The notes under the pieces are model-generated. The model searched no databases and had not been told where the DNA came from. It was given only the letters and a program-made list of their open reading frames with translations. A stretch of DNA of 53,625 nucleotides, taken from Psammoneis japonica. Taxonomy: Eukaryota. Positions 1 to 45,984 of the stretch are shown piece after piece. The stretch is from positions 1 to 53,625 of the forward strand of contig QPGO01000332.1 of NCBI GenBank assembly GCA_008632985.1. The letters are read 5' to 3'. Numbering within the stretch: position 1 is the stretch's first letter; every line of letters starts with the position of its first letter. Position numbers and translations under genes: made by a program.

Positions 1-1060
1 GTGGCAGCACTGTGTTGGGGGGCTCTCAAGCAGATCTTCTTGTTCAGCACAAATGAGAGAATCTGGCTGCTTGCGCACCCAGGCAGTTGAGGCGTGGAAG
101 CAGTTGGTGCTCATTCAGGGTGCTTCACAAGATTGCTTTAATTGGTTGACAAGCATTGTTGAGAGGATGGTGGAAGGATCCTGCAGCAGAGTCTTCCTGG
201 AAGAAATCACCAAGAAAGAAGATGGGCTCAGCACTGACAGTGCACTGATGATGCCCGGAAGAAATTGAGCAACAAGTTGTCAGTGTGGCACTGCCACTGG
301 AAGGTGCCAAGGAACTTTGGTGTCTTGAAAGACCTGCTCACTGGCAACAAGGCACTGTGGTGTTGGATGTGCTTGCGGAGCCACCAACGCAAGAAGCCTG
401 AGGGTGCAAGCTTTGTGCAAAGCAAGCAAGAAAAAGCAAGTCAAGTGCTGGAAATGTGACAAGGTCAGGCATGTGAAGAAGGACTGTCCTTTGCTCAATG
501 GCAACAATGACCATTCTTCAGTGGAGAGTCAAGTGATGTGAGCAGTGCGGCAGTTCACGGAGCAGTCGAAACGGCATTGGATGGCATGGTTTCCAACTGC
601 CATGCTCCTGTGCTTGGCACACATTGTGCCAATCAATTGACAGCCCATGCAAAGAAGTGTGTTGGAACATTGGGGCACAAGGTGGTTTTCATGGGACAAA
701 CAGAAAACATTGCAATGAAGAAGACTCGCCGATCGCCATTGATGACACGTGACGAAAATTTGCGCTCGCAGGAGCTCATGACAAGTTGCGGGTCTTGTGC
801 TCACTTTTTAGCTTCTGCACCCCATCATCCTCATGGCAACAGTGGTCAACAGCAGCATTGGGAATGTGTTTTTATGCCACATGGTGAGTTCGGGAGATCA
901 GCAAGGTTGGGCGCTTGCCAGTCTCTGCAAGCTCCTGCGAAATCCCAACAACAGCCAAAGTCCACAAGTGTGTGCTGTGTGCTGGCTGGTGTTAAGTGGC
1001 AGATTCCTGTGAAGAAATCAGAAGAGCATCCAGGGTTGGGGCAAGTAGTTGAGCTTACAC
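1..1060 (+). mobile_element. Degenerate LTR-retrotransposon (gag) fragment
   Basis: 446-490 encodes the CCHC zinc knuckle CWKCDKVRHVKKDCP. Gag-like reading frames are broken, and the DNA is TG/CA-rich and TpA-poor. The right boundary is approximate. Confidence 0.6.
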
Positions 1061-1291
1061 CATGGTTTGGACATGCACTTTAGTTTCGAAGATGAGCGCG
1101 GCTTCGCTGTTCAGTTTTTGCTTTCCACAAACACATGCATTCATTTTAAAGTTTACAAAATGGGTTATGTTGTCTAATCTGACAGCCGCAAGCTCATGGG
1201 ACGACACCGACCGCGGACGGACCAGCAGAGGAAACAAAAGATTTCAGACATCATCAAGTTTGATGCACATCACAGAACAAAAAAACTGACA

Positions 1292-3296
1292 ATGGCGTCG
1301 TCGTCGTCGTCCAGCAGAGTGATGTTTCAAGGCGTTCAGCAGCAGCCAATTCGTGTTGCATGTGTGGGTGGAGGACAATTGGGTCGAATGATGGCGATGG
1401 AGGCTCCACGCTTAAACATTGAAATGAAGTTCCTCGACCCATCAGGCTCTGCTTGTCCTGCGGCTCAAATTGTTCCGTCGGATCGAATTCTAAAAGGTTC
1501 TCTCAAAGACAAAGAATGCATAAGCAAGTTAGCAGAGGACTGTGATGTAGTGACTGTCGAAATTGAACACGTTGGAGTGGAATATCTGAAGGAACTGGAA
1601 AACGCGGGAGTCAATGTTCAGCCATCCAGTGGAGTGCTTGGAATTATTCGCGACAAGTATCTTCAAAAGGTATATCTTACGCTTCGACGTGCATAAGTAC
1701 ATGGTTATTCACATTTAACGTTACCATCTAACCCTTCCTTTGCTCTTATGAATAAAACCTTGACTTACAGCAACACTTTGCGTCTCGAGGAGTCCCGTTA
1801 CCGCCGTTTATGGCTACAAGCTCGGAAGCAGAAATTAAACAAGCGGCCGAGTCTCTCGGATTGCCGCTCATGCTGAAATCTCGTACTGGCGGATACGATG
1901 GTAGAGGAAATGCTGTATTGAAGGACCTTGGTGGTATAGAAGAAGCACTTTTGAAATTGGGGTGCTCGTCGCAAGCCACGACGACGTTTGACTTGTATGC
2001 TGAAGGGTGGATCGATTTCGATTGCGAAGTAGCCGTCATGGTGTGCAAGTCAAGCAGTGGACAGGAAAAATCCTGTACGTACCCCGCGGTCAATGCCATT
2101 CAAGAAGACTCCATCTGTCGTGTCGTCCTAGCACCGGCAAGAAACGTATCCGAGGAGATCCGGATGGAATGCGAGCGGATCGCGAAGCAAGCCATTGACT
2201 CACTTGGCAACGGCGCGTCGGGGGTGTTTGGTGTTGAACTCTTTGTTACCAAGCAAGGAAACGTATTGTTGAATGAAGTTGCACCACGACCACACAATAC
2301 GGGGCACTATACGCAGGATGCGTGTGTGACATCTCAATTCGAAAACCATTTAAGGGGAGTGTGCGGATTGCCATTGGGGTCCACCACGATGATTGTCGAA
2401 GCGGCCGCAAGTAAGTTTTACGTTTCTTTGGACGTGGGCTGTTTTCATAATATCTGCTTTGATTCAGTTTGCCGACTGATGTCGTCTTGCTTGTATGATT
2501 TGATGACGGGCTTTCAGTGGTGAACGTGTTGGGTGCTACTACTTCCATGGAGGACACGCTGAGAAGTTCCAACGCAGCCCTTTCAATGCCAAGAGCTGTC
2601 GTGCACTGGTACGGGAAGGGATATCGTGCCGGACGGAAAATGGGGCATATAAATTTGACTGCAGATTCTCATGGAGAATTAGATACTTCAATGGCGGAGC
2701 TTCTAGCTGTGGAAGGCATACCCGTCTCCCTCATGCCCGGTGGGAAATTGTACAACTCTCCGGTTGTCGGTGTCATTATGGGTTCGCAAAGCGACTTGCC
2801 CACCATGCACGCTGCGGTTGACATGCTGAAAAAGTTCGGAATATCCTACGAAGTAGACATTGTGTCGGCTCATCGAACTCCTGATAAGCTTGTTTCGTAT
2901 TCACGTGGTGCCGCCGGCCGTGGACTTCGAGTCCTGATTGCTGGTGCCGGAGGGGCGGCTCACTTACCAGGTATGGTAGCAGCCATGACACCACTACCGG
3001 TGATTGGAGTTCCTGTCAAGACATCAACTCTCAGTGGCCTTGATTCGTTATACAGCATTGTACAAATGCCTCGTGGGATTCCTGTCGCGACAGTGGCTAT
3101 TGGAAATGCCATGAATGCAGGGCTTCTTGCGGTCCGAATCTTGTCCAGCAGTCGACCCTCCCTGCGCGAAAAAATGAAGGAGTATCAAAATGAGATGACT
3201 GAAATGGTGAATGATATGAGCACGAGACTACTCGATATGGGGAGCGAGGAATTTCTCAGTCAAATGGATAGCAAGAACAAATCAGTAAACGTTTAA
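1292..3296 (+). CDS. ADE2: Phosphoribosylaminoimidazole carboxylase, PurK-PurE fusion (3 exons: 1292-1669, 1771-2410, 2518-3296)
   Basis: PurK motifs [51 protein letters not shown]. PurE motifs [49 protein letters not shown] introns 1670-1770 and 2411-2517 join in frame. Confidence 0.95.
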
Positions 3297-6949: not shown

Positions 6950-9900
6950 ATGAATGTCGTCACAAAGAAAAGTGCGTCATTCAAAATATTTCGAATCTTT
7001 TCTGACGCACGGCTGGGACAGGTACAAGTTCTACAGCACCACATGCTGTGGGCACAATGCCAAGACCCAAGTGCAACACACCTTTTTTCGTTCCCTGTGC
7101 CACTCCGAGGAGTCGGAGAAGGCGATCGAAGCGTTCGTGAAGTGGGTGCTAGAGTGGAGAGAGAGCTGCCAAAGATTGGGCTCCAGCACGGGAGCACACA
7201 CCAGCACAGTCTCTCGCCTGAGCACAAACAGCGGCGCAACTCTCGGAGTTTCCACAACATTGCAACCACATGTCCTGTGAAACTCAAGGCATCTTGTCAA
7301 GAGGCATTTTGAGGAAAGCGACCTGCTGAAGGAAAAATGCAGACAAGAGTCGACTGAGCAGATTGGATTCTCAACAGGGAAGAGACACCACCTCTGCTGG
7401 GCTGCTGGAAACTCGCTGGGGAGCTGACTCCAGATGTGAACTCCTTTGACAGTTCATCAGTGCCACTTGTGCAAACCTTTCCAACTTCACAAAATGTTTT
7501 GGTTTGTGCAGCATGAAAGAGTGAGGCAGTGCTGCAAGTGCAACAACAATCTCTTGTTGGGCCTGGGCCAGAGTCACAAGTCAGTCTTTCTGCTTGTTTG
7601 TTTGCAGACGTGATCAATGAATTTCTGGGCAGCGGGCACATCCATGCAGCCAGCTGCATTTCAAATCACCCATGCAGGCATTTCCCAAAGCTTTGTCTTG
7701 CAGATGATGACAGGCTGGTGCTCGCCATCATTGCAACACTGCGAGTCTGTTCTCGACATCTTCGTTGTCACAGAAGCAATGTTGAGGCAGTTTGTCGCCA
7801 TTTTTCTTTCTTTGGGATCCCAGCCTTTGTTGACTTGTGCGCTGTTCTTGGTGGATCCCAGTCCATCATCTTCCCAGCAACCAACTGTGATTCATCCATC
7901 AACGCTGTTGGGATCAGATTCCTTGACAAATGTGTGGGGGACATGCTTGCACGCAGGTTGGCTGTGAATGGGAGGTGGCGTCCAAGTTTTCATGAGCACA
8001 GTGAGAAGACCAAGGCCAACGATCACTCCACAGGAGCAGCTCATGTCTCGGTGGCAGAATTGACATGACTTTGTTCATCAGCTTCTTTTGTTTTGTGGTG
8101 TCTTTGCCAGCGGGACAATGCATGTGCAGTGTGTGGCTGAGCCAACGGATGCAGAGCTCGTGGGTTGCCACTTCAGGTGAGCGCAAGTGCAACAAAAGCA
8201 TTTGATCATCACTGGGTCAATCAACAAAGAGTTGCTGACCAACATCTGGCACATCCAGCATCTCTTGCCTCTCATGAATTGATCTGCATCAATCATCACG
8301 AAAGGCAAAAAAGGGGTGACATTGCTGGTCATGACTGTGAGTCTTGCGACAACCTTGTTTGGACAGATGACAGATGCTCCCATGGCAAAAGTTTGATTTG
8401 AGCATGCATTTGTGTCGCAAGTTGTGATGGCATGGAGCACGGCATGCAGCGCAACCATCAACCACCCCCAGTGTGTCTGCAGTTTGCAGGGGACATTTGT
8501 CTGGTGTGGCTTTGCAAGAATGGGTTAAAACGGCATTGAAACAATGATGTGGGGTGGATGCAGCACTTGCTTTTTTGAGATGAAACCTTTCTTGACTCTC
8601 AAGCAAGCCCCTGCAAGCAGTTGCTGGCTGCTCATGACTCCTTAGATTGAGAAAGGAGGGAGACACACCCAACAGCCTCTGAGAACCCCATGAGGAGATG
8701 TTCATGCTCAGGCTGCAAACTGGCTGTGCTCATTGGCAGACTCCAGGCTGGCTGGTTGGTGGCACTTGCCAGCCCTCTCTCTGGAGAGCATTTCTTGAGG
8801 ATGGTGGGTGGTGCAGGCTGGCAAAAAGTGATGCAATCAAAGGAGCCATCAGAGGGGGTTGCATGAAAACCTTGGAGCCCACACAGTTGGACTCCTGCAC
8901 CTCACATGCTCTAAAAACCAATGCAGCTGAGACAGCCAAGCCTTCAGCAAGACAATGGAACATCGCCAATGATGGACAGAGCCATGTGGGCATGTTGTGG
9001 CCACCCCATCTCTTTGGAGCACACAGGACCTGGTTTGGCAGGTGGTGCTTTGAAAGGAGGCCAACTGCCTCAAATGTCACTGACAGTCATTCTCTAGATG
9101 ATGGGTGCTTGCTCTGACAAAGAGTTTCAGGAGCTCACCTTTGATTTGCAAGACAGCAACAGAAACAAGCCCTTGCTGAACCTTTCAGTTCACCTTGCTG
9201 AGTGGTCATGCAGGCTTGCATGCAAGGAATTTGATGAACTGCTGCTTGTGATTTTTTCTCTCCCTGTGTTCTTTGCCGCCTCTGTCAGCACTTTCCTCAC
9301 GGAGCATTTCTCTGGGTGAGAAGGCAAGTGGCAGAGTGTTTTGGCAAGGCATGGCCCTTGGATTCCCTGCAGAAGGTGACCCTCATCTTCTCTTGAAATG
9401 TCTGTTGGAAGATTTTCATTTTCTTGTCCAGCACCAACATGGTCACTTTGCTGGGTTGCCAGCTGCACATCTTCCATCTCTGGCACCTGCTCTCAACATG
9501 GTGCTCAACAACCCCCACAAAAGCTCTGAACTTTTCCATTTGCTTGCAGAGCACTTCCTGAAACAGAAGATGTGCGTGCACATCACAAACATTCCTGAGA
9601 TGTTTCAAGCACACTGGCACCAGCCCAAAGAAAACCAAGAACCCCTCAAAGATGATGCCAAGAGAATTGAGCTCTGTGTCTTTTGTGTGGGGCCAATGGC
9701 CTTGCTGTGTTGCTCAACCCGTGCTTGTCAGGATCTCAAGTGTTTGTTTCTGTGGTGCCGCTGGAGTCTGCAGCTGCCAGTGTGGATCACATGGAAACAC
9801 ACAAGCTTGCAAATGGAAAGAAGGTGTTGCTGCTTGAGCAAAATTCAGGCAACCAAGCAAGCTCTTGGAAGTTCAAGATTCTTGGTGGCCAAGCATTAAA

Positions 9901-10980
9901 TTCAATCAAGCTTTTGAGTCTCAACTCCATTTAAGAGTGTTTCACTGGACCTTTGGCCAAACAGAGATGCCTGTCAAAGAAAGCTGTTGGCTGGCAAAGG
10001 TGCAGAAGAACATCAGGGCTCCATGTCTGCAAGAGTGTGCCTGCTGCCATGTCTTTGAAAATGGTTTGAAAGTGCTCCAGTGCTGCACGCAATGCCATGA
10101 GTCCTTCCACTGTTCACATTCCCACCAGCAGATTCATTGTTGGAAGGCTGAGTGAAAGTTGAGCCATTCTCCTTCAATGGCCAGGCAACAATTGCCAAGA
10201 AGTTTCTGGTAAAAAGTGCACCTCCTTCTCATGGGTCTTGCAAGCAACACAAAATGGCTCTTCACATGGAAAAATCCAGAGGTCATTGGGTCTTGTGCAC
10301 CATTGTTTTCAACCTTTTTACAACACAAAATGGCAACAAAACAGAGTTGAGCATGGCAGCAAAAACTGTTTTGGCAGTGGGGCCAGTTGCATGTGGGGGC
10401 TTGAGCTGCCAGCCTGCAGCATGTTTGTGCTCCACATGTCCATTTGTGCAAGAAGAAGGCACCACTGGCCCTGCTGCAGAGATGATGACAATGATGACAA
10501 CAACAACAACAGCAGCAGCAACAATGCTCAAGGACATTTTGTTTGCAGCCTGTCCAGATGCTTGTGTCAAGCAGGCTGGGGGGAATGAAACCAGGCACAT
10601 GGGCCCACTTCTCAAGCTCTTCTGTGGCCACCCTCTGATGCTGAGCCTCAATGAGGATGTGGAGAAAAAGGCAGCCAATGGCACTGCCATCTAAAATTAA
10701 GGAGTTGAGCTAAAACAAGGTGTTTCTTTGAATGACTTGGAGTTGATGAGGGTTGGTGGTCAGTGGGTGAGATCAGCCTGTGTTTCGCGCATTTAGTCCA
10801 TCATCTTGAGGCACCATGAGAAAAAGGCAGGAGTGCAAATGTGCCTGCTGCACATGGCTCCAAGAGGAGAGAGACACCTGTCAACTTTCCTGTCCCTGCA
10901 GTGGGTTTTGTTGACAAGACAACTCCAAGAATTGGCCAGAGGATCCAGATGACCCAGCTCCCGGTTTTGTGCAGCAGCAG
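6950..10980 (+). mobile_element. Degenerate PIF1-helicase-encoding (Helitron-like) element, plus strand
   Basis: 10600-10690 LKLFCGHPLMLSLNEDVEKKAANGT matches the PIF1 'LKL..G.PLML..N.DV....ANGT' region. About 10930-10975 IQMTQLPVL matches the pre-motif-V QFPV segment. Many frameshifts; TpA and CpG depleted. Boundaries approximate. Confidence 0.55.
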
Positions 10981-13900
10981 ATTCCACATTGTGTGTTTGT
11001 TGTCCCAACATGGGCACATCTTCTTTGCACAAGGTCACAAGTTGTTTGGCAAAACCCTTGTTCTTTTCTTTGTTGTGCAAGACTTCACAAATTGCTCCAG
11101 GGAGGAAGAGCTTCTCCAACAGCCTTTCAGCATGGGCTCTTCATCCCTGAGCAAAAGGCAGCAATGCCGTGCACATGACTGGTTCTGCGTGCCTTGTTGA
11201 TGAGTGTCCTTTCAGCTTGAAAGATGGTGCTTCCTGTCTTCCAAGATGCTTGCAGAGCAGAATCTGGAGCTTGCATCTCAGTCCAGCTGGGAACATGAGT
11301 GAAGATTGACTTGGTGAGATTTTTGAATTCAAGGACTGTTTTGTGTGCACGATCTGTTGGAAGAATCCTTGCCAAAGCTCTTGCAGGGTGCTTCAACCAA
11401 AACATGACAAATGAGGTTAAAGCAGGGCTGCAGACAACAGTGGAGGATGTCCCCAAGCCTGAGGAAGCTGCGCTGAAGCTGTGGCAGAAGTTGCTGAGAT
11501 GTTGCCCATGAAAGTGCCAGATTCACAGAGGTGACACAGAGCAACGTGTCTAAGGCCACAAGCAACTCTGCCAAAACTTGTCCGACATCATCTGTCAAGA
11601 ACAACACATCTGAAAATCTCAAGCACAGCACATCTTTGGGTTTTCTGCACTCCCTGTGGCTGAGACTGAGTTGAAGCCAACTGTGTGTTTCGCCCACCAC
11701 CCTCATCCATCTGAGCTGTCAACAAAATGGCAGGGCCTCAAGATGCTTTTTTGTGTCTGCTGTTCTGTGTCCTGCAAAAGATTTTCCACATCCTGGGCCA
11801 CCTGTCATGCAAACAGATTTGGCAACAGCTCCAGCATTTGCAAGACACTTGTCCAAAGCATTGTCCATTGTGTTCAGCATCTGACACTGATCTTCAAAGA
11901 ACTCTTGACTTTGTTCATCTTGACCAAAATGCGCTGTGACTTCATTGCAATTTGAAGGGCTGTTGATTGTGGCTCCCCCAGCACTGTGCCTTTTGGTGGC
12001 AAAGTGATGCCACTCACATGCTGCAATGGAGTTGTCAACACACAACACAAGCTGGGCTGCAGAGCACTGCAATGGTCACTCAAGTCATCATCCACCTGAT
12101 GAACCAAGTGACTTTGTGCAGCAGAAAGAGCTTCTTCCAATGTTGGGCAATCATTTGCCATGCCAACACATTCTGTCAAAACTTTGAGATCCTCCAGGTG
12201 CACATGTGAGATGCTCTGTGGTGCATCATTGCAGCTGCCTTCAACAGCTTTCTTCCTCTCAGCCAAGAGCCAACAGCTTGCTTTTGTCAAAGCTTGTCTC
12301 TGATCTCTGCTGGCAAACAGCCATGCTCATTGTTTTTTTTTGCCCATGCTCACAACAAGATGCACAGGAAAAGCTTCAGGTCTGATGGGGCCAACAACAT
12401 CAAGCCACACTGCAGGAAGATCATTTCATTCATTTGAAGTGCAGAGAAACAGGCACTCACAGCTGGCTGACAGCACCCTGTTTCTTGACATCAAAATGAG
12501 CCAGGTGGAGCATTGGCCAAGCAACACATTTGTTGGTTGAACACACCCTTGACTTGTGTTCTTGTTGAGCATGTGTTTGCCAGCGACATGTCCAAAATCT
12601 TTGTAGGGTGATGTTGCCATGCAATCAATCAACTTGGAAAGAGCAGTGACTTGCAATCTGCTGCCACAACTCACTCCATCAACCTGCATTGTTTTGAATG
12701 ATGGCTGTCTGATGCCTGATCAAAGTGCAGCTGGGCCAGGTTGAAGGTGCAAGATCTGCTGCTGCTGCTGCTGCCTCTGTGAACCATCAAAAGCTTTTGC
12801 TCCCCAACAAACCTCAACTCTGGTGGTCAAATTGCAAAAACAGTCCCAGAGTGAATCAATCAAAAATCTGAAAGCAGCTGGCCCTTTGGCACAAGCAACT
12901 CAGTGAGTGGGAGCATGCACCCTCTAACAAGAAAGACACCAAGAAGCTGCAAAGACATGCAGCCAGTGTTTGCAGCTGGGTGTGACATGTGACAGCTCTG
13001 CTGCTGAAATCCCTCAGCTCTCTTGCACAAGCAGGAAGATCTGCAACTCCTTCCTTTTAAAATTTCTCAACCCTTGGCCACCTGTTAAAAGATGGGTGCA
13101 CTTCTGCAGCAGCTGCCACAGAGATGCAATCACATTGGCCGGTTGTCCGTGTGCACTTGCAGATGCCCCAAAATTGTCAACATCATTTCCACCAGCCCAG
13201 CTGCGTGCTGTTTCCATTGGCTCTCACAGCACCATGATGTCTTGCACTTTTCCATTTCTTGTGCAGCAGATGAGTGCAACTTTGTTGGCACTGGACAAAT
13301 CTTCCATGGCAACCTCCTCAAAACAAGACTTGCACTGCTTTCCTGCAGCAACTCCTGCCTGTGCTCAACTGCGCTCATCAGCGCTCACAGTGATTTTGCC
13401 AAATGGAAAGAGATGCTCTTGGCTTTTTGCAAGATGTGACATGAAAATTGTGCTGCTCCCACTCAGCTCTGTTCACCATGGCAAAAGCATTGCTGCTGTT
13501 TGGATCAATGACCCACTTCTTTGTGCTGCTCAAAAGCTGCCGCCTTGTGTCAGCCTCATGCTTGTCTTGAACACCTCTTGCTGCCAAACCATTGTCTCAA
13601 CTTGTTGACCCTGAAATGATCTCTTTGGTTGTGAGAAAAAGCAGCAAAAAGGGTGCATTGTTCATTGCTTCTTGCCACAGGTGTCAGCTGACCACCAAAT
13701 GCAGGATGGCAATCAACCACATCCTTTTCCTTGATGCAGTGCAAAACCCCAGCTCAGCATGGCTTGAGAACAACAAAATGAGATCTGAGAAAGAGTGCAT
13801 GAGATGTTGTGGGTCAGCAGAGCAAAGCAAGCCAGAGTCTGTTGTTCTTGCCTGTGTGTGGTCCTCCACAGTGGAAAATCTGTTGTTGGAAGTGAACATG

Positions 13901-16080
13901 CTCCTGGCCAACAAGTTGCTGGGAAGAGGGCCAGCAACACGCGCCTCACTGTCAAATGAGCCCCAAAGCACAGAAGGGAGCATTCTCAACTCTGAATGCA
14001 CAAGGCAGTGGAGCAGACTTTCCAGCAGCAGCCAACATTGCTCTCCGCAAAATGTTGTTCTTGGCAGTCATTGTGCCTGCCACTTTGTGCTTCAATCTTG
14101 TCAACAAACTTCCACAGTTGTCAAGAGCAATGCAGCCTGGTGCATCAGTTCTGAACACACATTCAAAGGACAGAGCTTCTTTGTCCACTTTGGAAACATC
14201 AAGAAACACACAGTCACAAAGTCCAAAATAAAATCAGCAACACAAAACCCAAAAATGTTGCCAAGCTGATCAGTGTTCTCAAAGTTTCCATCAGGATTGA
14301 ATTTGAACTCATTGTTTGCACCAAAGCTGTTGCCCAAAATTTCCTCCAAATTTGTGTTGCCCTCATCTAACATGCTGGTGCCAGCTGCAGTTGATGCAAT
14401 TGATGTTGTTGAAGATTTGCCACTGAACAATCCAACATCCATCCAGTCATCATTGCTGCCTCTTAAAGCCTCATCTTGCCCTGTGCCATCATCCAACAAA
14501 CTGCTGCCACTCCACAAATCACCATTGTTTCTTTTGCTGTCATTTCAAGGTGCACCACCAGCAGTGCCAAAATGCCTTTCTCACCACTTGCTGAAATTTC
14601 CTTGCAATGGTGGGCACAAACTTGCATTTCACATTTGTCTGCAGGATGCTGCTCAATTGCTCAAAACTGGGCTTTTTAGCACAATCATTTTCACAGCAAT
14701 CAAGTCTTTTTTAAAATGGCAAAACCACCAATGAAACATCATCGCATTGACAGCACACCTTCATTTGTCTGTGGAGTGACACCAGACAGCATTTTTGCCA
14801 CAAAGGCACAAATTGACTGCCATCACTTGTTTTGCAGCTGTGGCAACTGCTGCCACACCGACCAAAACAACTGCTGCCATTTGAGAAACATCTTGCCTCT
14901 GCAATGGCTGGCACACACCAACCCCATCCATTGCTTGTTCACACTGTCCCACACTGACATGCTGGTGTGCCAAAGAAGCTCTCATTTGTGACCATCACTT
15001 TGGACTTGGTCCAGCAATGGCGGGGGCTTGAGCTCCAATGTTGGCATGATTTGCAGAAGATGTTGTTTCTGACTGTGGACTTTGAGCACAAATGCTGTGC
15101 CTGAGCTTGATGCAGTGTTCAAAGCCACTTCTGAACATTGAGTCCATCTGAAGTCCTTTGCTGCACAACACCAGCTTTCATCAAACTCTTCTCTCTTCTC
15201 ACACAGGACAAAATTTCTCACAAAAAAGTGATCTTTGCCAAACCTTTGGAAGGGGACTCTGGAAGACATGTCTTGTCCTCTGCAGCGCAAAGAAGCCAAC
15301 CTTGCCACGTGGCACTGGGCTGCACCCCACTGTCAGTCAACTCCCACAAACAAGGCATGCAAGCAACAAGCATGGCTGCTGATGAAAAAAAGAAGTGTGT
15401 TGTGCGCTTTTGACTCTTGCAATGCTGGCAATGCCAGAAGCTCCTTGCCACATTCTTTGCTGAAACAAGGATGAAGCTCACTCAACAGTCCAGGCCAATG
15501 GCTCTTGAAAAAGCTTGTGCAGCACAGTGCCGCTGGCACCAGCTGTGCGCACAAGAACAGCAGAGAGCCAGCTCTTTAGCTTCACAGGTTTGTGAAGTTT
15601 TGGCACACCATGCAAAGTCATGTGTGCAGTTCCAGCCTGAGCTTTGTTGACATGTGCTGGCAACTCAGGTTTGTCAGAGTCCTTCAGCACCTCCTTGTCA
15701 TCTTTCGAGATGACAACATCCTCTCCTGTGTCTTCTTTTCCCTCCATCTCTGCTGAGCACGCAGCAGTGAGTGCCGAGCTGACGACTCTCAAATGTCACA
15801 GCTTCCTGCTCTTGTCTTGACAAATGAGCTGTTCTCAAAGGTCCCAGTTGGCATTGCCAGGGCTTTGTCTGGGGGTGTCGCTGTTCAAAGTGTTGCCCTT
15901 TTTGACTGCAACAGGAAGTGACCTTCCGCCAGGCAGCAGCGGCAGCCTGCCAGAGCCACGCCATGTGCAGTCTACCGATGCGACAGACAAGCAGACAAAA
16001 CACAAAACAACACAACGAACCCAGAACTACTGTAGGTAGGGTGAAGTGATGGGTCACCCCTTCAGCCCTTCAGATTTAGA
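10980..16080 (-). mobile_element. Degenerate PIF1-helicase-encoding (Helitron-like) element, minus strand
   Basis: Walker A MTGGPGCGKSF (~11780-11810) and Walker-B-like DVLFLTDDVGQVLAELLVALDTLL (~11550-11610), then KLFLPGAICEVLHN. Possible 5' A|TC end at 16080 (weak). Confidence 0.6.
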
Positions 16081-16175
16081 TGGCGCTCATATAGGAAGAC
16101 GGAAGACCATCATCAGCACAAAGAAAACACAAGTTATTGGAACATATGGTCTAATAAACAGCTGAAAGCGGATAA

Positions 16176-22144: not shown

Positions 22145-22949
22145 GCTTCCTTCTTCGTTTCTAGACTGGAATTTAAGAATATTATCGGCGCTTCTGACAA
22201 CAAACTACCGGTACTATTTGTAGCATACTCTAGCTTCCTTCTTCTCGTTGATACTGTTTCGCATCATGATAAGTTTTGGGCTCCCTGTGCATTGATGCGA
22301 CAACGTTGTTTCCGAGGTAAAGGTAGTTGCATGAGATGCATTGCAATTGAAGGGGAAAGTGAGGTGTCCAAGTCTCTGAGCTGCCTTCTCTCCTCCCCAG
22401 GTTACCGTAACTTTCTTTCTCACCACGCACGGGGTGAGTTCTTCCCATGGTGGTGGGGGGCAAATTTATTTCCACTTCCCACCTTGGTTTTTTAGCCCTA
22501 CCGTATTTCAAATTACAAATCATTGCTACTCGTGACTCGGATTTTTCCCGACTCGGGATTCCATGAGAGAGTAACAATTGCCCCAAAATATATGGTAGGG
22601 CAATAGTTGGGCAATTGATCAAGTTTCGGGCGGACGGATGGTCATCAGGCCGGCAGCATGGTCGACTTCGCAGAAGCAATAAGATGATCATCATTCATCG
22701 CCCGCTGTATTCGTTCTTTGTTGCTCTCTAGCGGTTCGAGTTTAGGTGGGCAAAACACTTGACAGTTGCAGAAAAACGTCTTTTGTTGAGGAAGTGCTGT
22801 TGTCAGAAAAGAGAGTGGTCTGTGAAGGCAATATTTGTGTTTGTTTTCGCTATATACCGTACGAACAACAGGTATTTTTCGTAAGATTCACTACATTGTC
22901 TACGTGACTTGCGACTGCAGCACTTGTGTCGAGACTGCAATTCAATACT

Positions 22950-25645
22950 ATGGATATCCGCCTGGAATCCGTTGTCCAGCGGCTTCCGGCTCTTGTCTAT
23001 GTCTATTTCGTCAATCACACGACCGGGTAAGGGCCTCATCTGTATGGTCATCGAAATAAATTTCTCAGCTGTTCACTTTTGTTCTCACGTGCAATGTTCC
23101 ATTTTCCTACTACCCGGCGCTGCATACAACCGCAGAGAGTGCGGCTTTCATTTTGTGTCTGATTATTGTAAAACAATGTTTGGATACACACCGCAGCAAG
23201 TGTATGAAGATGGGAACCTGCTGGTGAATGCCATTGTCGAAGAAGAAGCCGAGGGGTATGCTGCTGCTGTGATTGAGAGCATGACAAACTTGACTCCCTT
23301 TGATCGAATGGGACATATGCGTCGGTCCGATGGACAAATCATGGATGTTCACTATCAGTCCATGCCACGTTTGATTGAAGAGAAAAATCCAAAGGACGGA
23401 TCGGTGACACAAATCACCGTGTGGGATGGAGTGGCATGCGATGTCACGGCCAAGAATGCAAACGACCTTCACAATCGCGTGACTGTGGAACAAACGGTCC
23501 GTGATTCGATGCAACCCATTTTTGAAATTGATACCCGTGGGAACATTAGCAAATGGAACAGTGCCATGTCCTCCGTCACGGGATATACTCGTGAGGAAGC
23601 TATCGGTCAACCCGTCGTGTCGTTCATGCCGGACGAAGAGCGAGGAAAGTTTTGTAGCTTTGTCTCCAAGGCGGTTAGTGAATTAGAGGATGAACAGCAG
23701 CTTCAGACATTTGACTGTGTGTTTGAATCGAAAAAGGAACGCAAACATGTGTTTCTGCATGCCAAGTGTACGTGCAGTAGAGATGCTAACCTGAGTCGGA
23801 TGGGACTTTTGTGCTGCTGCCAAGACATTACCAAAGTGAAAGAGGCTGAGAAGCAAAAGGATGATGCTCTCAAATTGGTGGATGCAGAGAGAGGTCTTAC
23901 AGAATGGCTTAGTCACGAGGTTCGGAATCCCCTCTCGGTGGCGATGGAGGCTGCTATCGCACTCCAAGACGGAGAAGACGACCAGGAAAACTACACGGAG
24001 CTTATCTGCGAATCGATTCGCTACATTGTTGATCTACTAACCAATATGCTGGATCTCAACAAGTGTATGGATGGAAAGATTGCCCTGTACCCTTCAAAAA
24101 GCCGAGTTCGCGAGGATGTATTGATTCCTACTTGCAAAATTATGTCGGTGCGAAACGACAAAGTGAAACTCCTCTTGGAAGATGGCGAGGAAGTGGAGGG
24201 CATGGTTGACAAGCTGAGATTGAGACAAGTGATTACGAACTTGGTTGCCAATGCCCTCAAATTTACCAAGGAGGGGTTTGTCAAAGTCAATCTTGAAAAG
24301 ATTGTTGGCGAGAAGCAATCTACAATGCGAATATCAGTGGCCGACTCCGGCTGCGGGATAGACCCCGCTGACTACAAGCTATTGTTCTCAAAGTGGGAGT
24401 CAATTGGATCGCAAATAAATGGTGCTGGCATTGGACTCTGTTTGAGCTTGTCCCTTGTGAGGGCCATGGGCGGTACCCTTTCCCTCGACAAAGACTACGC
24501 GTCGGGATTTAAAAGCAATAAAGGTGCACGATTCATAGTCGAGCTCCCTCTCTCGTCAATGCTTTCCGTGGATGGCTCCAATCTGAAACTTCCAGCTTCA
24601 GAAACGCTTTCAGCCGCAGTACTGGCTCGAAACCAATCCAAAAGGCCGCTGAGTGGCGACGACGTTGTCAACAAACAGGCAAAGAAGAACAAGACTTGCA
24701 ATTCGAAAGCAGAAACTACCCATCTGCGTGGAAAGTATCAATTGTTGATCGTGGACGATGACAAAATGGGCCGTAAGTTGCTCACCAGGCGCTTTCAGCG
24801 ACTTTTTCCGGATGCCACAGTTACGGAGGTTGCTAGTGGCGAGGAAGCTCTGAGAGAAGCCGAGAAAACAACGTTTGACATTATTACGGTCGATCATTTC
24901 ATGTCAGCCGACGGTATGAATGGCACAGAAACCATCAAGGCGCTTCGAAACCGTTTCAAAGATGCTTGTATTGTGGGTATCTCGGGCAACTCAAAGCGAG
25001 AGGAACACTTGGGGGCAGGTGCACAGGATTTCTTTCAAAAGCCAATTCCCAAAGACGACATCTTATTGGACCGGCTCATTACCAAGATCTCCCCACCCAG
25101 TGGATGGAAAGTGTTGTGTGTTGACGATGTTGCTGTTAATGTTCGAATGTTGTCCAGGAGACTTTGCAAAGTTGCATCTCCACACTTTACATCGCTGGAA
25201 GAAGCATCGAAGGTACGTTGTTGCTGTCTTTTTGACGTTAACATATATTCAGGCTTCTGCTGCTGACTCTACCTTTGTGTGACGCGAATAGCGATGGGAC
25301 GTAACGACGAGGTCAACAGGAGAGGAAGCCATAGAAGTATTAAAGAAACAATGGTTTGATCTGGTAATTGTCGATCAACATTTGGGAGAAGGTCCAAGTG
25401 GTGCGAATGTCGCAAATTTTGTTCGAGAACAAGCTGTAAACAGAGACGCTGTGATTGTGCTAAACAGTGGATCGGTTCTTCGAAACCAGTTTGTCGACAA
25501 GCCCTACAATGTGTTTTGGCCCAAACCTCTTCCAAGCACTGAGCAGATGCGTCTCGACTTGTGTCGCGAACTTGTGGCATCGACCAATCGGAACCATGCG
25601 GGTGAGTTAGACGGCAAGGACGACGAGAAGAAGTCATGTTTGTAG
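22950..25645 (+). CDS. Hybrid sensor histidine kinase PAS-PAS-HisKA-HATPase-REC-REC (exons 22950-23026, 23136-25212, 25292-25645)
   Basis: PAS motifs (FGYTPQQV; WNSAMSSVTGYTREEAIG), H-box WLSHEVRNPL, N-box RLRQVITNLVANALKFT, G1 VADSGCGI, G2 GAGIGL. Receivers: LIVDDD...DIITVDHFM...KP and LCVDD...DLVIVDQHL...KP. Both introns join in frame. Confidence 0.92.
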
Positions 25646-26741: not shown

Positions 26742-27088
26742 TGTGGGAAAGCAGCCAGAATTCTAAGATTCGTCTGCACTTTCAGTGATTAAAAGCTGCA
26801 ATTGCGATGCAACAATCAATCAGCAACTTTGTTGCACCAAAAGTTGAGAGGTGACAATCAGTGCGTTAGAAAGATTATGAGCAGTTTTTATGAGCAGATG
26901 CAGCTGCCATCTAAAGGAAACGCGAAGTTAAACAAGCGCGAAGCTAGGAACAAACATCGCATCCGTGACTCGGCTTCCGCGGGATTCGAGACTGAGCATC
27001 GCACACGGGGTTCGAATCTTGGATCTCTGACTTGAATCGTGGAGGTCCGATGTTGTTGTAAAAACATGCAAACATGAACATTGTCACA
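26742..27088 (-). repeat. 3' LTR of Copia element
   Basis: Direct repeat of 33505-33851, differing at 7 sites. Confidence 0.97.
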
Positions 27089-27131
27089 CTCCCTTCAACA
27101 ATGTCGGGTGGAATGATGACTCGAAAACGTC

Positions 27132-30100
27132 TTGCCACTTAAGGAGCGATTTCCTGTGTTTGACAAAGAGATTCTGTGGTGGAGGTTTGGCGAAAATGTC
27201 TGCAATCTGATCCGCCGCATCAATTGGCAGGATTGACACGAGACCTTTGCGAACATGGTCTTTAAAGTGGTGAAGAGTGAGGTTGAAGTGTTTTGTCCGA
27301 GGACGCATCTTGGGCAATCTCGCGATCTCCAATGCTCCAGAATTGTCTTCAAAAGCCTTGCAATGTACGACTGGTGTCTTGGAAGGGACATCATGACCGT
27401 GATCCATAAATTCTTGAATGAGGTTCACAATTGGGATGGCGCTTCGAAGACTTTCCGAAAGAGCGACAAACTCAGCTTCAGCAGTGCTGAGCGCGATCTG
27501 AGTCTGCAGCTTGGACGTCCAGACAATCGGACATCCTGCATGGGTGATGACAAACCCAGTTCGAGATTTGGAAGTGCCGACGTCATCGGGTGCAGTCAGC
27601 TTATTCCAATTGCCCACAAAGTCCGCGTCGGCATGAACTTCAAGGGACTTGTCCATTGAGGGCTGCAGTGTGATGCCTTCAGTTCTGGTTGACCTCAGGC
27701 ACTCACAGAGCCATGGCACGGCTTCACCGTGAGAAACCTTGGGATCAGAAGAAAAGCGTGCAACTTGGTGCACCGCGTAAGCGACATCTGGTCGAGTGCT
27801 CTTCTCCAGAAAATTGAGCTTGCCGATGATGGATCGGCAATGAAAGCTCCCTTGGAAAGCAGGCTCACTCATGTGCCTGTGGAGGATCTTGGAGGAAGGA
27901 GCAGGAGCAGACTTGTCTGGCAGTCTCTTTGGAATGTTGGCCATCTCCAGCATCTGATTGACAAGGTGAGGTTGGGCAAGTTTCATTCTGCCATCTGGTG
28001 GTGTCTCGACGTTGACACCGAGACAGTCGTCCAGAGTGCCTTGACCATCAATGTCAAAATTCTCATCTCTGACATCCTGCATCGCCTTGTCAACAGCAGA
28101 CTTGTCAGGGGATGCAAAGATGCCGTCATCGACACAATGAATGAAAATGACATTGCCGCGAAAATGCAGGCACTCATCAACCGCCGATTGTACGAAACCA
28201 ATCCTTGACAATCCATCACGCAAGTGTTCTTGCCATGCTCTCCCTGCTTGCTTTTGTCCATGTAAGTTCTTGAGCAACTTCAGAACATGAGTCTCACCAT
28301 TGCCATGTTTTGTTTCAATTCCTGCAGGTAACTCCATGTGCACATCACATTCGATGTCGGCATGCGGGTGCGCCAGAACGAAGTCGACTTTGCGTGCACG
28401 CCACTTCTTAAGAATGGCAATGATCAGCAGGAGCCGGACAGTGAACCAGAAGACCACGGCAGAGCAGGTCTGGAAGTAGTTGACAGCATACTCTTGCTTT
28501 CCGCCGTGCACATTAAGTCGGGACTTCCATTTGAAGACGGCTTGGGTCTTAAGGCATTCGCACAACCAGCGCACAGTAGCGCAATGTCGGACAGACGACT
28601 GTCGTGCTTTTTTTGCGATTTGCGCGACAAATTGCCGTCGACGCCGACGATGACGATGACATTTTTCTGATTGTCTTACAGAACGACTTTAAAATATGCA
28701 CTTAATAGCGTTATCAATAATGCTCTTAAGAACATCAATACGTAAAGAAAGCTACCCGGACGAGCTCATAATCGTTCGATAATTGAATGCATCAAATGAC
28801 AGTCAAAAAACAGAGCTCAGTATTGGTATGACGTTTTGCGATTGAACGAAGGCTGCTCCTGGTCTATTTCATGACTTGATATGTTCGTAAATTTAATAAT
28901 CTAAATGTCTATAACGCTCAAAAACTCCAGGACACGTCGATGTCGTCGCTATCATTACGACAACGCACCGCCGTCATGTCGCCGATTTTTAGCGATGCTC
29001 GTGTAGCGCGCACGAAGTTTCCAGTACAAAAAAAATTCAGAATGTCAAATCGTCTTGCCATCCATCAGCTCGTTGTGCGAATACGTTAATGTCTCTTTTG
29101 CGCTTCATAGACCACACCGAAGGGAGAACATCAACATCGTCAGGTACGTCCTCTCTTGGAATGAGTGTCCAATGTTTCCTTTCAATGTGATCATTGACCT
29201 CCTTAACACAGGCCTTGATAAATTCGTCTCTGTCAGGTTCACGCATGGCCTGATCAAAGTGCATGGTGCCGGGGTCCGAGCTCGCCAGAAAAGAGATGGG
29301 TGAGTCCACATCGTCCTGCAGTTTGTAATCATCCTCGTGCATCGCATCATAACATGCCTCTGCCTCTGCATTGTAGGAGACAATGCCTTGAGCCCATTGC
29401 AGTTGGCTCTCGCGCATCCTTTCGGTCGGGCGTCGTTGTCGGCCGGACCCACTGGCACTGGGTTGACCCACAGTGCGCTGTGGCTCAGATGGTGCATCAG
29501 AATCATCTGGAGGCGTGCATGGCATTTCATCATCCGGTTGGGCATTGTCAAATGAGTCATCAGTGGTGGACGTGTCAGCAGGATGCAGCAGCTGAGACGG
29601 GACATCCGAGCTCGGCTCAGGTGGTTCCGTTGTGGCAGGGACTGATCCCTCAACCGGTGCGTCACTTGATTTCCCAAAGATGTTGAAAGTGCTCCTTGTC
29701 TTGAGTTGTCTGAAACCTGCAATGCCTTGCCATTGTGAGAATGTAGGAGGATTCCCAGCAAAAGGGCGAACGGTCTCAAAGAAGTCGTCAAATTGTGCGT
29801 GAAATTGCGGCGACACGAGTCCGGTCTGCAAGTTCAAAACCAAGGCAACTGAACCTGCATGTCTTGTTGATGGTCCCAAATTGATTCCCAACTTTGCCCT
29901 TGGGTCCCACTTGGGCAGCCTGCCTCCTCCCTGCAACCGGTTGTGCAAGGCGTAGACGGGACAGCCGAAGGTGTGGTGTTGTTTGAGATTGGGCTGGACC
30001 TTGACGGACGAGAAACGTTCCAGCGGAGAAGAGCCATCCTCGTGATTCGGCAAGTGATTCTTGATCTCGTTTGAGTTCCTGAGAGCGCTTGGCCACAAGT

Positions 30101-31888
30101 TCAACTCAACAGCCGTTGGCCATCTCACTTTTGCATGCAGGAGTTGCTTCCGAGATTGCTCTTGGAGGTCCCTCACTCTTTTCTCCGCGATGCCGTTTTG
30201 GAAGTGGGCGTTGACCCCACAACAGGATGTTGTTTGCTGTTGCTTCTTGACATCTTGTATGAAAGCATTGTCAGCAAATCTTCCATTGTCGGCGTGGTGG
30301 TGTTGAACACGGACGTGCATCCGGCGTGCGAATGCCTCGAAAGCGTGCTTGGCTTCGAGCGTCTCGGCTGAGGCAAGTCCTTTCTGCAAACACATGCATC
30401 CCAATCCGCTGAAATGATCAACAAAATTGTCGCTGCTCGATGCCTTTGTTTCGTAGGTCTCCCTTTGAGCTGTGGGATCAATCCAGGAGTGGGACTCTCG
30501 AGCTGGTCGACGGATGCGGCTTCTCCAGGCGAAGTTGCCAAGTGGATTCGTCGGTTCCGCTTGGACTTGGAGCGCCATGGTCGTTTCGTCATGGCACCGT
30601 GTGGGCAGCCGGCACATTTTGGGTTGTGTGCCTTTGTGAGGTGTTTCGGTAGAATGCCTGGGGCGGCCAATGGCTTTGTCATTTTGAATGACATGTGGCC
30701 CAGGCGGCAATGCCAACGCAACAGTTCACCCTGGTCATCTGTGGCAGCAAGGGCGTCATCATTTGGTGTGATGTTGATGGGTTCCGGCAAGTCCTGCTGT
30801 GCCTCCGGTGTCGTGAAATCTCTTAGGTTTTCCTCGTCTGAGTCTGAACGACTTGCTCCGTCTGTTGGCTCAAATGAGACAGGAGCATCCTCATCAGCAG
30901 TGTTGCGTGCGTCTTGCGTCTCGGAAGGACGTGTCTCGGATGGACTTCTGAAGACGTCTGTGTCAATTGCAGCCTCGTCATCATTCGCAATGCTCTCGTC
31001 ATCTGGTGGTATGATGTGAGCTTGACAGGCCACGTGCTCGATAGTTTCGACATCGGTTTGTCCTTCGACAGCGGCTGCAAAGGTCCGGCATTTGTTGGAA
31101 CCGGGTGCGGAGCGCATCTTGGCGACATTAGAGTTGGCGGACCATGGAATCAGGCGATGGCACTTGTGCTGGTCCCACATCAGCAACAGTCCGTCGTCCC
31201 CAGTCCAAGATGCGGTTCCGTGAGGCTCTGGCGTGTGGTCATTAGCTTGTTGGCTCCATTGCTGCGGGCAGAGAAGACAATGAGGTAAGTCCGGTGCGAG
31301 CAGCGCGTCTCGAATTTTGATGCTGTGCACTCGTCCCATGTCGTCCTCAATTGCCCACTGCACTGTTCCTTCTCCCTTAGCACGCAAGTGGCCCTTGACA
31401 CCGAGTGCCACTTTGTTGGATTTGCGAAGAGGACCAATGAAGTGTGCCTCGTTGTTGGACATGGTGCAGGAAGAATGTGAGTCGACACCGATTGCGAATG
31501 AGTCCGAATCGTAAGTGGGCTCCGTTCGCTCGGGACAGTGTGGTGTGGTTGAGTTGTACGCTCCAACCGTCTTGTGTCGCGCAATGACACAGTGAGCCTT
31601 CTTGGTGGCCACTCTGGAGCGGTGACCTGGCCTCGTCGACGTATGATGCCGTGCACAGTGCCTCGTTGGCCGTCGCTGGTAAGTCTTAACTCGTCTTGTG
31701 CCCAGTTCAGCCAGGACATGTGAGATGACCCACTCACCCAGCGTCATTACGGCATGTGACAGGCGCTTACACTTTTCTGAAGGAAGGGATAGCATCATGA
31801 ACAGCAGCATGATCCAGATCGACACTGCACATTTCATGACGCCAGCGACCGCTGTCAGGAGCACTGACACAGTGACGGCCATCTGCAA
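27132..31888 (-). pseudogene. Copia pol (protease, integrase, reverse transcriptase, RNase H), mutated, frameshifted near 30425 and interrupted by a MITE
   Basis: Motifs IGVDSHSS, WHCRLGH, HADNGRF, QNGIAEK, WSMKRKRD, LKNLHGQKQAGR, CVDDG, TRPD, ADADF, EDNSGA, ADIFAKP. Confidence 0.93.
28553..29085. mobile_element. 533-bp non-autonomous DNA transposon (MITE) with TTAA target duplication, nested in Copia RT
   Basis: TTAA at 28549-28552 and 29086-29089. ~15-bp imperfect TIRs GGCATTCGCACAACC / CGTTGTGCGAATACG. Excision restores KRDIKTQAVFKWK. Confidence 0.9.
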
Positions 31889-31924
31889 GGACAGCAGCAG
31901 TGTCAGAGTGAACCTGCAGAGCAG

Positions 31925-33430: not shown

Positions 33431-33504
33431 GGCAACAGCAGAGTAAAGTGGAATCGAGAGCTTAAGATCGATTGACTTAACTTGTAGATTTCGCAGAGGA
33501 AGCG

Positions 33505-33851
33505 TGTGGGAAAGTAGCCAGAATTCTAAGATTTGTCTGCACTTTCAGTGATTAAAAGCTGCAATTGCGATGCAACAATCAATCAGTGACTTTGTTGCAC
33601 CAAAAGTTGAGAGGTGACAATCAGTGCGTCAGAAAGATTATGAGCAGTTTTTATGAGCAGATGCAGCTGCCATCTAAAGGAAACGCGAAGTTAAACAAGC
33701 GCGAAGCCAGGAACAAACATCGCATCCGTGACTCGGCTTCCGCGGGATTCGAGACTGAGCATCGCACACGGGGTTCGAATCTTGGATCTCTGACTCGAAT
33801 CGTGGAGGTCCGATGTTGTTGTAAAAACATGCAAATGTGAACATTGTCACA
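33505..33851 (-). repeat. 5' LTR of Copia element
   Basis: Direct repeat of 26742-27088. Confidence 0.97.
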
Positions 33852-33913
33852 ATCATCATGCCAACAAAGACCACAACGGCCGACAACAACATGGGGCACA
33901 CTCCTTGCTGCAT
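33852..33913 (-). pseudogene. Displaced 5' end (signal peptide) of the EEP gene
   Basis: MQQGVCPMLLSAVVVFVGMM joins in frame to IPTATTAQTLLPNG once the Copia and one TSD copy are removed. Confidence 0.8.
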
Positions 33914-45950: not shown

Positions 45951-45984
45951 CTCAAGACCCATCACACTTGTGGTGGGAAGCCAG

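Follow-up and report, generated by a model that had tools for sequence, protein, structure and literature searches.

TpA has almost vanished from a block of 8,921 bases in contig QPGO01000332.1 of the Psammoneis japonica assembly GCA_008632985.1, which we analysed over its positions 1 to 53,625 (hereafter the window). The lost sites reappear as TG and CA, and the few survivors sit in a strongly biased set of flanking bases. A Copia retrotransposon in the same window is also TA-poor, while the flanking genes and a younger insertion inside the retrotransposon are untouched. TpA-directed DNA hypermutation with a preference for a pyrimidine 3' of the adenine, combined with CpG decay, is very probably the explanation, as judged from base composition, copy differences and codon changes. 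Below, Y is a pyrimidine, R a purine and N any base, and o/e denotes the ratio of observed to expected dinucleotide counts. The focal block is the following feature.

7040..15960, no strand: block stripped of TA and CG, delimited by composition; no recognisable gene, terminal repeat or tandem repeat.

The focal block retains 25 TA in 8,921 bases (o/e 0.04), as opposed to an o/e of 0.58 in the genic baseline, for which we used positions 1100-7040 and 15960-26700 of the same window (16,682 bp). The depletion runs through nine consecutive 1-kb segments, each with a TA o/e of 0.03-0.09 and a TG/CA o/e of 1.5-2.1, and both edges are sharp: the last ordinary TA on the left lie at 7023 and 7032 and are followed by a single CTAG at 7150, and on the right a TTAG at 15577 precedes ordinary TA from 15973 onwards. 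The surviving sites comprise nine TTAA, six CTAA, four TTAG, two CTAG and one each of GTAA, TTAC, GTAG and ATAA. A preliminary description of this DNA had reported a few dozen remaining TA, nearly all of the first four types, and the count bears this out (21 of the 25 are YTAR); all nine positions that it named are TA sites of the types it gave, one of them (9898) being 9897. It had also reported no ATAT, GTAC, ATAC or GTAT, and each of these indeed occurs zero times in the block, compared with 70, 50, 40 and 43 times per 16,682 bp of genic DNA. Runs of A are intact, as it had said: the AA o/e is 1.27 in the block and 1.14 in the genes. TA is the only such dinucleotide lost, with AA, CA and GA not depleted. 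Two observations extend that description: CG is also stripped from the block (o/e 0.16 vs 0.96 in genic DNA), and the TA-poor state reaches beyond it. TG and CA have risen to an o/e of 1.83 and 1.78. The GC dinucleotide is raised (1.36 vs 1.02) and AT lowered (0.76 vs 0.98), the pattern expected if both TAC and TAT are converted. The two strands are affected alike, with 577 TGY and 559 RCA (p=0.61).

Outside the focal block, the TA-poor state spans positions 1-900 and most of 27000-53625. Apart from the Copia element described below, this DNA consists of two features.

1..900, no strand: second TA- and CG-poor block at the window edge, with 3 TA in the first 900 bp.

33855..53625, no strand: further TA-poor DNA with internal repeats, TA o/e 0.01-0.28.

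Within the latter, 38700-46200 is also CG-poor, and 46800-53625 is GC-rich and has kept its CG. These blocks allowed the bias among survivors to be examined in three sets. Genic DNA has 99 YTAR among its 670 TA, whereas 21 of the 25 TA surviving in the focal block are YTAR (Fisher p=1.4e-13, odds ratio 30). A second baseline, taken from metagenome loci related to the Copia reverse transcriptase (the best 80 of 568), contains 3,351 YTAR among 16,400 TA and gives p=1.8e-11. The proportion is 16 of 24 in the set formed by 1-900 and 38700-46200 (p=2.9e-8) and 47 of 119 in the TA-poor blocks that have kept their CG (p=4.7e-9). Equal loss of all NTAN tetramers, which the preliminary description had named as an outcome that would contradict it, is not what the window displays: YTAR density is 2.4 per kb in the focal block and 5.9 per kb in genic DNA, so that about 41% is left, and the other three classes together have fallen from 34.3 to 0.4 per kb, about 1%. 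YTAR sites are slowed rather than spared, contrary to the earlier wording.

We fitted a model that treats the A of each strand as an independent target, with a rate that depends on the base 3' of it. With two rates, the cumulative hits before Y and before R are 3.49 and 0.46 in the focal block, 2.71 and 0.55 in the second set and 1.39 and 0.42 in the third, corresponding to Y/R ratios of 7.6, 4.9 and 3.3; in each set two rates fit better than one (chi2 62.9, 39.2 and 47.6, 1 df). A four-rate fit to the focal block gives 4.12 for T, 3.07 for C, 0.83 for G and 0.23 for A. For the partly mutated blocks it gives T 2.22, C 0.93, G 0.60 and A 0.29 and is superior to the two-rate fit (chi2 33.1, 2 df). 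The fits support, in a softened form, an order of 3' neighbours T≥C>G>A, in which a strand would be hit roughly 3-8 times faster before a pyrimidine than before a purine. A specific preference for TAC does not follow from these values, because T in this position is at least equal to C, both in the focal block (4.1 vs 3.1) and in the partly mutated blocks (2.2 vs 0.9).

The products of the lost sites carry the same information independently of the survivors. The gain of each product class over genic DNA can be compared with simple arithmetic predictions, in which the lost TA of each class are added to half of the lost CG (all values per kb).

YTGY: observed +17.5; predicted 17.7 with the TAY rule and 11.9 with no rule.

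RCAR: observed +15.2; predicted 15.9 with the TAY rule and 10.8 with no rule.

RTGR: observed +0.5; predicted 5.8 with the TAY rule and 10.8 with no rule.

YCAY: observed +6.4; predicted 6.1 with the TAY rule and 11.9 with no rule.

The TAY rule fits well except for RTGR, whose gain falls short of the prediction. About half of the TG and CA gain derives from CpG loss. A rule based on a purine two bases 5' of the A was also considered; it is indistinguishable from the TAY rule by survivors and is excluded by the products, which are TGY and RCA and not TGR and YCA. The survivors are not the result of back-mutation, because only 24% of the TG and CA in the focal block lie in a Y..R context, and back-mutated TA would be 24% YTAR instead of the 84% seen.

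The focal block itself has no recognisable ancestry. No Pfam domain scored above the cut-off in its 33 open reading frames (ORFs) of at least 90 aa or in 104 ORFs of 45-89 aa, all matches being sub-threshold (E 0.003-0.07). A search for terminal and tandem repeats in the block found none, self-BLAST revealed no second copy of it in the window, and its longest ORF does not look protein-like in the protein Atlas (recognition 984, best score 0.79). The many long ORFs are a by-product of the mutation, because a change of TA to TG or CA removes TAA and TAG and makes no in-frame stop, so that reading frames stay open. Having lost both TA and CG, the block looks older than the Copia element. At 13953-14708 it is covered by two contigs, one of depth 40 and identical to the window, the other of depth 39, with 66 substitutions and 54 gap letters over 726 nt. 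The genes nearby differ from their contigs by merely ~0.5-1.3%, and the depth-39 contig may represent a strongly diverged second allele or a paralogue. Run X2, a run of the same sample judged to be transcript-like because its contigs skip intron-sized stretches of genes, leaves 13855-15855 uncovered, which has no bearing on expression.

The identity of the mutated DNA is clear for the neighbouring element, a Copia retrotransposon at 26742-33854 with a pair of 350-bp long terminal repeats (LTRs).

26742..27091, minus strand: LTR, left in the window, 97% identical to 33505-33854.

33505..33854, minus strand: second LTR; ATCAT is duplicated at both outer edges of the LTR pair.

27092..33504, minus strand: internal part, with Pfam RVT_2, gag_pre-integrs, SH3_retrovirus and Pol_BBD.

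27084..28574, minus strand: reverse-transcriptase ORF, with a codon-level mutation record.

The two LTRs differ at seven sites: three TA|CA, two CA|TG and two CG|TG, without any further type of change. A single RNA serves as the template for the two LTRs of an insertion, and the differences therefore arose in DNA, after the LTRs had formed. Sixteen substitution sites separate the copies of a second young repeat pair (35176-35452 and 38364-38648); every one is of the TA or CG type, and seven are CG|TG/CA. All 23 substitution sites of the two pairs are TA|CA/TG, CA|TG or CG|TG, with no other transition and no transversion. AA to AG changes as frequent as TA to TG, the other outcome named beforehand as contradictory, are not seen (0 of 23 sites). 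A duplicate in genic DNA, 17350-17664 and 19657-19954, serves as a control and displays the usual mixture of mutations, including 21 transversions. In the Copia element beside the insertion described below, the TA o/e is 0.14 and the CG o/e is still 0.72-0.79, from which it follows that the TA process is much faster per site than CpG decay.

The direction of change can be read from the codons of the reverse transcriptase, which we compared with 120 homologues at conserved columns. Of 13 conserved Tyr columns, two are kept, five have become Cys (TGY), three His (CAY), two Phe and one Leu. Retention is complete for Lys (13/13), Trp (6/6) and His (7/7) and nearly so for Gly (19/20). Tyr has changed to His only after a purine (3/3) and to Cys after a pyrimidine in four of five cases, as the per-strand rule predicts. 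Conserved Ile, Met and Thr codons preceded by T have become Val or Ala in 8 of 8 cases (T|A-Y to T|G-Y), and further changes include ATA to ATG twice, GTA to GCA and CTA to CCA.

Other copies of the family read in the same direction. The summed contig depth on the Copia element is 1,100-2,200, compared with ~60 on single-copy genes; depth piles up far above that of the genes, which indicates a multi-copy family. Transitions account for 797 of 1,011 contig changes relative to the window. Among 26 listed differences (of ~1,021), the window has CA or TG where other contigs read TA in eight and CG in nine. Transcript-like X2 contigs show 58 C>T and 63 G>A changes relative to the window, as against 20 A>G and eight T>C. 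The related metagenome loci, the best 80 of 568, have TA o/e values of 0.35-0.92 with none extreme; this is no evidence that extreme copies are absent, since the search patterns included a Tyr and only the best 80 were kept, both of which select against hypermutated copies.

X2 contigs also align to the gag-integrase region (29138-33067) at 94-96% identity while skipping 13 segments, each 70-115 nt long. Read on the plus strand, which is antisense to the Copia ORFs, six or more of them have GT at the start and AG at the end, and several donor sites read GGCAAGT where others have GGTAAGT. Cutting out the 13 segments reduces the minus-strand ORFs of 583, 546 and 501 aa to at most 266 aa. A coding gene on the plus strand was considered and rejected, the longest plus-strand ORF after removal of the segments being 278 aa. 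These contigs look like spliced antisense non-coding RNA of the Copia family. On the plus strand of the element there are 316 TGY and 269 RCA (p=0.057), an asymmetry that is absent from the focal block. Strand asymmetry in the Copia element could reflect transcription, possibly that of an antisense transcript.

An insertion inside the Copia element has escaped the process. It resembles a miniature inverted-repeat transposable element (MITE).

28549..29089, no strand: MITE-like insertion of 533 bp with a TTAA duplication and 22-nt terminal inverted repeats.

Its arms, 28549-28570 and 29068-29089, are 86% complementary, and other Copia copies lack it, skipping 28549-29085. The MITE contains 30 TA and 46 CG, with a TA o/e of 0.70 as opposed to 0.14 in both flanks, a CG o/e of 1.86 and all four NTAN classes. 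As an unmutated MITE sits within a mutated Copia element, the depletion follows the history of the element and not its chromosomal neighbourhood. Either the process acts in bursts or it targets particular sequences. The TTAA target of the MITE is a piggyBac-like choice and one of the few TA tetramers that survive hypermutation.

The preference for TAY on either strand is supported by survivors in three sets of blocks, by the products and by the reverse-transcriptase codons; several observations weigh against it or narrow its scope. The rule for the 3' neighbour assumes that the NTAN composition of the lost DNA matched that of the genic DNA in the window. Eight repeat-pair events could be polarised, where one copy keeps TA, and they show no significant bias (3 of 18 opportunities before Y vs 5 of 46 before R, p=0.68; 3' neighbours A in four, C in three and G in one), so that these few events do not confirm the preference. 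Two of the four polarised sites of mixed class were hit on the disfavoured strand. Nine of 16 TA sites in the two repeat pairs are already YTAR, and exhaustion of the fast sites before the copies separated may explain the unbiased events. Differences of the CA|TG kind may trace back to CG just as well as to TA. Outside the MITE, 18 of 61 Copia survivors are YTAR, compared with 20% in the 80 best of the 568 Copia loci (p=0.08), and the Copia coding strand has 27 YTAY and six RTAR (p=0.012 vs a 60:40 baseline) where the model predicts no asymmetry. The integrase ORF is a poor replicate of the reverse transcriptase: conserved Tyr is kept in 0 of 4 columns with just one His, the homologues are too distant, and the ORF shifts frame after residue 488, where the alignment degrades. 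Confinement to mobile or foreign DNA beside normal genes is seen for the Copia element only, the focal block and the other TA-poor blocks having no recognisable origin. The earlier label of transposable element thus suits the neighbouring Copia and does not extend to 7040-15960. Finally, all of the evidence comes from the sequence of one window in one assembly, and the contig run is probably the source of that assembly.

Under the hypermutation reading, an element-bounded process acting on DNA would turn TpA into TpG or CpA through A:T to G:C transitions, hitting both strands about equally, and the focal block would represent its end state. RTAY sites would vanish first, and YTAR sites would last longest because they present TAR on both strands. 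A second, slower process, decay of CpG to TpG or CpA, would converge on the same dinucleotides, as expected from cytosine methylation of diatom repeats; the CpG loss would fit the methylation of diatom transposable elements (PMC9998398). As the agent we tentatively favour a zinc deaminase of the cytidine deaminase (CDA) fold that would convert adenine to hypoxanthine in DNA at 5'-T-A-Y-3', although our confidence in this part stops short of even. The process would presumably serve as a defence inactivating mobile or foreign DNA.

The main rival places the primary lesion on the thymine. A TET/JBP-type dioxygenase would oxidise T in 5'-R-T-A-3' to 5-hydroxymethyluracil (5hmU) or 5-formyluracil, which would be read or repaired as C. 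Since R-T-A is the complement of T-A-Y, this route has an identical sequence outcome, and strand-symmetric results offer no way of telling A>G on one strand and T>C on the other apart. It gains some appeal from the membership of dinoflagellates in the SAR group (stramenopiles, alveolates and Rhizaria), alongside diatoms and chlorarachniophytes. It suffers from the weak mutagenicity of 5hmU opposite A, and no TC>CC signal turned up, though no search was aimed at one. In dinoflagellates, 5hmU made by TET/JBP homologues marks transposable elements, and earlier work cited in the same paper found it preferentially in place of T in TA and TC (PMC11572971). The text of the preprint describing TpA hypermutation in the chlorarachniophyte Bigelowiella natans mentions neither hydroxymethyluracil nor JBP (bioRxiv 10.64898/2026.01.13.699255). 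We regard the thymine route as unlikely, though worth keeping in mind. An enzyme preference would be superfluous if the excess of YTAR reflected ancestral make-up, TA sites formed later, or a shielding of particular tetramers (TTAA or CTAG, for example). The assumed baseline, the unbiased pair events (3/18 vs 5/46) and the p=0.08 of Copia survivors against the Copia baseline leave room for this. It is at odds with the two baselines for the focal block (p=1.4e-13 and p=1.8e-11), with the concordance of three block sets, with the 84% YTAR where back-mutation from TG/CA predicts 24%, and with the product classes and the split of Tyr>Cys and Tyr>His by the preceding base, which are independent of survivors. 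Taken together these make it improbable.

Error-prone repair synthesis at heterochromatic repeats could in principle place G opposite T at TA, for instance by a polymerase like Pol eta, whose WA hotspot (W, A or T) includes TA. Such a polymerase should also have affected AA, which is undepleted (o/e 1.27 vs 1.14), and neither AA>AG nor any other change outside TA and CG occurs at the 23 substitution sites of the two young repeat pairs; the loss of TA is close to saturation (96%) without collateral change, which is unlike polymerase error, and we give this explanation little credence. ADAR-like A-to-I editing of element RNA, fixed by reverse transcription and insertion, is still harder to reconcile with the data. 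ADAR favours G 3' of the edited site, and the 3' neighbour here is Y. Editing of one RNA template cannot make two LTRs differ, which contradicts this explanation, for the LTRs of the single Copia insertion do differ at TA sites. Both strands are hit, as seen in the coding-strand Tyr>His, GTA>GCA and CTA>CCA beside Tyr>Cys and in the 577 TGY and 559 RCA of the focal block, and transcript-like contigs carry T or A for C or G of the window more often than the reverse. In its favour, spliced X2 contigs of the same sample do align to the Copia element, and the preference of ADAR for U 5' of its sites is noted in the Discussion of the B. natans preprint, where the changes nevertheless arise in single-copy integrated DNA during clonal growth (bioRxiv 10.64898/2026.01.13.699255). 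A last alternative is that there was no mutation at all, the DNA being foreign or constrained and always having avoided TA and CG, or being an artefact of assembly or sequencing. In its favour, the sole run containing the focal block is probably the assembly's own source, and the block has no recognisable ancestry. The state of the Copia element is nonetheless derived, according to conserved residues, LTR differences and other copies reading TA; none of the Copia loci (best 80 of 568) falls below a TA o/e of 0.35; and an unmutated MITE lies inside the mutated element, with normal genes on the flanks. We consider an origin without mutation very improbable.

The genes that frame the focal block supply both the compositional control and the affinity of the host. 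A Pfam scan places ordinary genes in 1.1-7.0 kb and 16.0-26.7 kb of this eukaryotic window, among them an ADE2-type PurK-PurE gene, a ThrE-like gene, a TLC-domain gene and a PAS/histidine-kinase/receiver gene. Two of them are of particular use.

1196..3296, plus strand: ADE2-type gene (PurK-PurE) with Pfam ATP-grasp, PurK_C and AIRC; internal control and taxon marker.

22909..25266, plus strand: hybrid histidine kinase gene with Pfam PAS, HisKA, HATPase_c and Response_reg; normal composition, used as a control.

The ADE2-type gene has 37-38 TA per kb and a normal composition. The part compared is 72-81% identical to its named relatives, all of them raphid pennate diatoms (Cylindrotheca, Seminavis, Nitzschia, Bacillariaceae, Mayamaea, Amphora and Epithemia). 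Named relatives of the histidine kinase are the diatoms Corethron and Seminavis, and those of the Copia reverse transcriptase are Thalassiosira and Cyclotella; no Bigelowiella protein appears among the named relatives of these three. By gene homology, the host is a pennate diatom. Within the histidine-kinase ORF, one X1 and one X2 contig skip 792 nt (23937-24730) with GT..GT ends, which may represent a deletion allele or a collapsed internal PAS repeat. A Pfam scan of 27 window ORFs of at least 150 aa found no deaminase domain.

The remaining TA-poor DNA contains few landmarks. A Pfam scan of 93 ORFs from the TA-poor blocks outside the focal block, 83 of them ORFs of at least 95 aa from 33855..53625, found no credible domain, its one match being spurious. 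Self-BLAST detects a tandem-like repeat at 36111-36629, with a period of ~84 nt and copies 75-84% identical, in a TA-poor, GC-rich stretch in which both strands carry very long ORFs (up to 396 aa) with no family match. The stretch 46800-53625 has a GC content of 57-60%, a TA o/e of 0.04-0.24, a CG o/e of 0.7-0.86 and ORFs of up to 401 aa without a Pfam family. It is either a younger hypermutated element or a set of real genes that avoid TA to an extreme degree.

TpA-only hypermutation of inserted DNA had previously been described in one 2026 report, on a chlorarachniophyte and with no mechanism. Our full-text literature searches found no account of it in diatoms, nor any elsewhere beyond B. 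natans. The present window adds the same signature, near saturation, in a pennate diatom, a member of another major lineage, with an LTR retrotransposon among its targets. A further addition is a putative per-strand preference for T-A-Y over T-A-R (T≥C>G>A), seen in survivors and products, which would narrow the range of candidate enzymes. The TAY rule can be checked on the 231 published B. natans mutations and supplies substrates for oligonucleotide assays. For annotation, hypermutated DNA is a source of long meaningless ORFs, as in the focal block, where 33 ORFs of at least 90 aa belong to no family. A natural DNA adenine deaminase, if true, would be of direct interest for base editing. A much broader proposal, which we offer as a speculation that is more probably wrong than right, is that diatoms and chlorarachniophytes, and perhaps SAR at large, share an enzyme-driven DNA defence that would recognise the degenerate palindrome 5'-R-T-A-Y-3' in marked mobile or foreign DNA and convert it to TG/CA, in bursts, until the element is dead, halting exactly at the element borders. 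Such a system would be the mirror image of repeat-induced point mutation (RIP), and the enzyme behind it would be a thymine dioxygenase related to the dinoflagellate 5hmU enzyme, or else a DNA adenine deaminase, the first natural one to be used in eukaryotic genome defence.

The closest known system is that of B. natans (Mettrop et al. 2026). Of 231 de novo mutations found in two integrated viral regions of its mutation-accumulation lines, 230 are A>G or T>C, all at TpA, and they arise under clonal propagation at ~1e-7 to 1e-6 per site per generation; 124 clusters poor in TpA and rich in CpA+TpG were described, and an ADAT2-like deaminase was proposed (bioRxiv 10.64898/2026.01.13.699255). The two cases share A>G and T>C changes solely at TpA, which give TpG and CpA, localisation to particular stretches of an otherwise normal genome (inserted DNA there, and here in the case of the Copia element), and a coupling of TpA loss to CpA+TpG gain; reverse-transcriptase and DDE domains are enriched among the TpA-poor genes of B. 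natans. Activity is patchy in both, being recorded in 11 of 15 lines there and here leaving an unmutated MITE in a mutated Copia element. The cut-offs used for B. natans are TA at most 0.43 and CpA+TpG at least 1.52, and the segments of the focal block (0.03-0.09 and 1.5-2.1) can be said to lie far beyond them. The present host is a diatom (a stramenopile), whereas B. natans is a chlorarachniophyte (Rhizaria). Here the process affects an LTR retrotransposon, the one target that could be identified, together with blocks of no recognisable origin; in B. natans it affects DNA of nucleocytoplasmic large DNA viruses (NCLDV) and virophages. Depletion is near saturation here, with an o/e of 0.04 compared with 0.45 for the NCLDV region of B. 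natans, and CpG loss is superimposed, a term that does not occur in the preprint text. The main text of the preprint gives no rule for flanking bases and does not use the words trinucleotide, context or flanking, nor diatom or polymerase, although its Figure 2B and Table S2 may show such a rule. Mutations were seen there in real time, whereas here they are read from finished sequence.

The other known systems each resemble one side of the pattern. CpG decay in diatoms, where methylation of transposable elements is DNMT5a-dependent in Phaeodactylum (PMC9998398), accounts for the CG o/e of 0.16 and for the CG|TG differences between copies, but cannot remove TA. Dinoflagellate 5hmU likewise belongs to a SAR lineage, has T in TA (and TC) as its target and is found mainly in repeats, but is described as an epigenetic mark, with T>C hypermutation not reported in that account (PMC11572971). 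TadA, ADAT2-ADAT3 and the TadA base editors share with the putative agent an obligatory T (U) 5' of the A and a favoured pyrimidine 3' of it; a difference would be that T in the 3' position at least equals C here. The natural TadA site is U-A-C-G, in the anticodon loop of tRNA-Arg, and we know of no established natural DNA activity of TadA/ADAT enzymes on chromatin. RIP, in Neurospora and other fungi, is likewise a heritable, element-bounded hypermutation of repeats through transitions in a dinucleotide context that leaves a diagnostic skew. Its outcome is the opposite: RIP turns CpA into TpA and enriches TA (PMC7296669), whereas here TA is destroyed, CA and TG are made and no TpA enrichment is seen. 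RIP creates stop codons, whereas in the diatom DNA TAA and TAG are removed and none is created.

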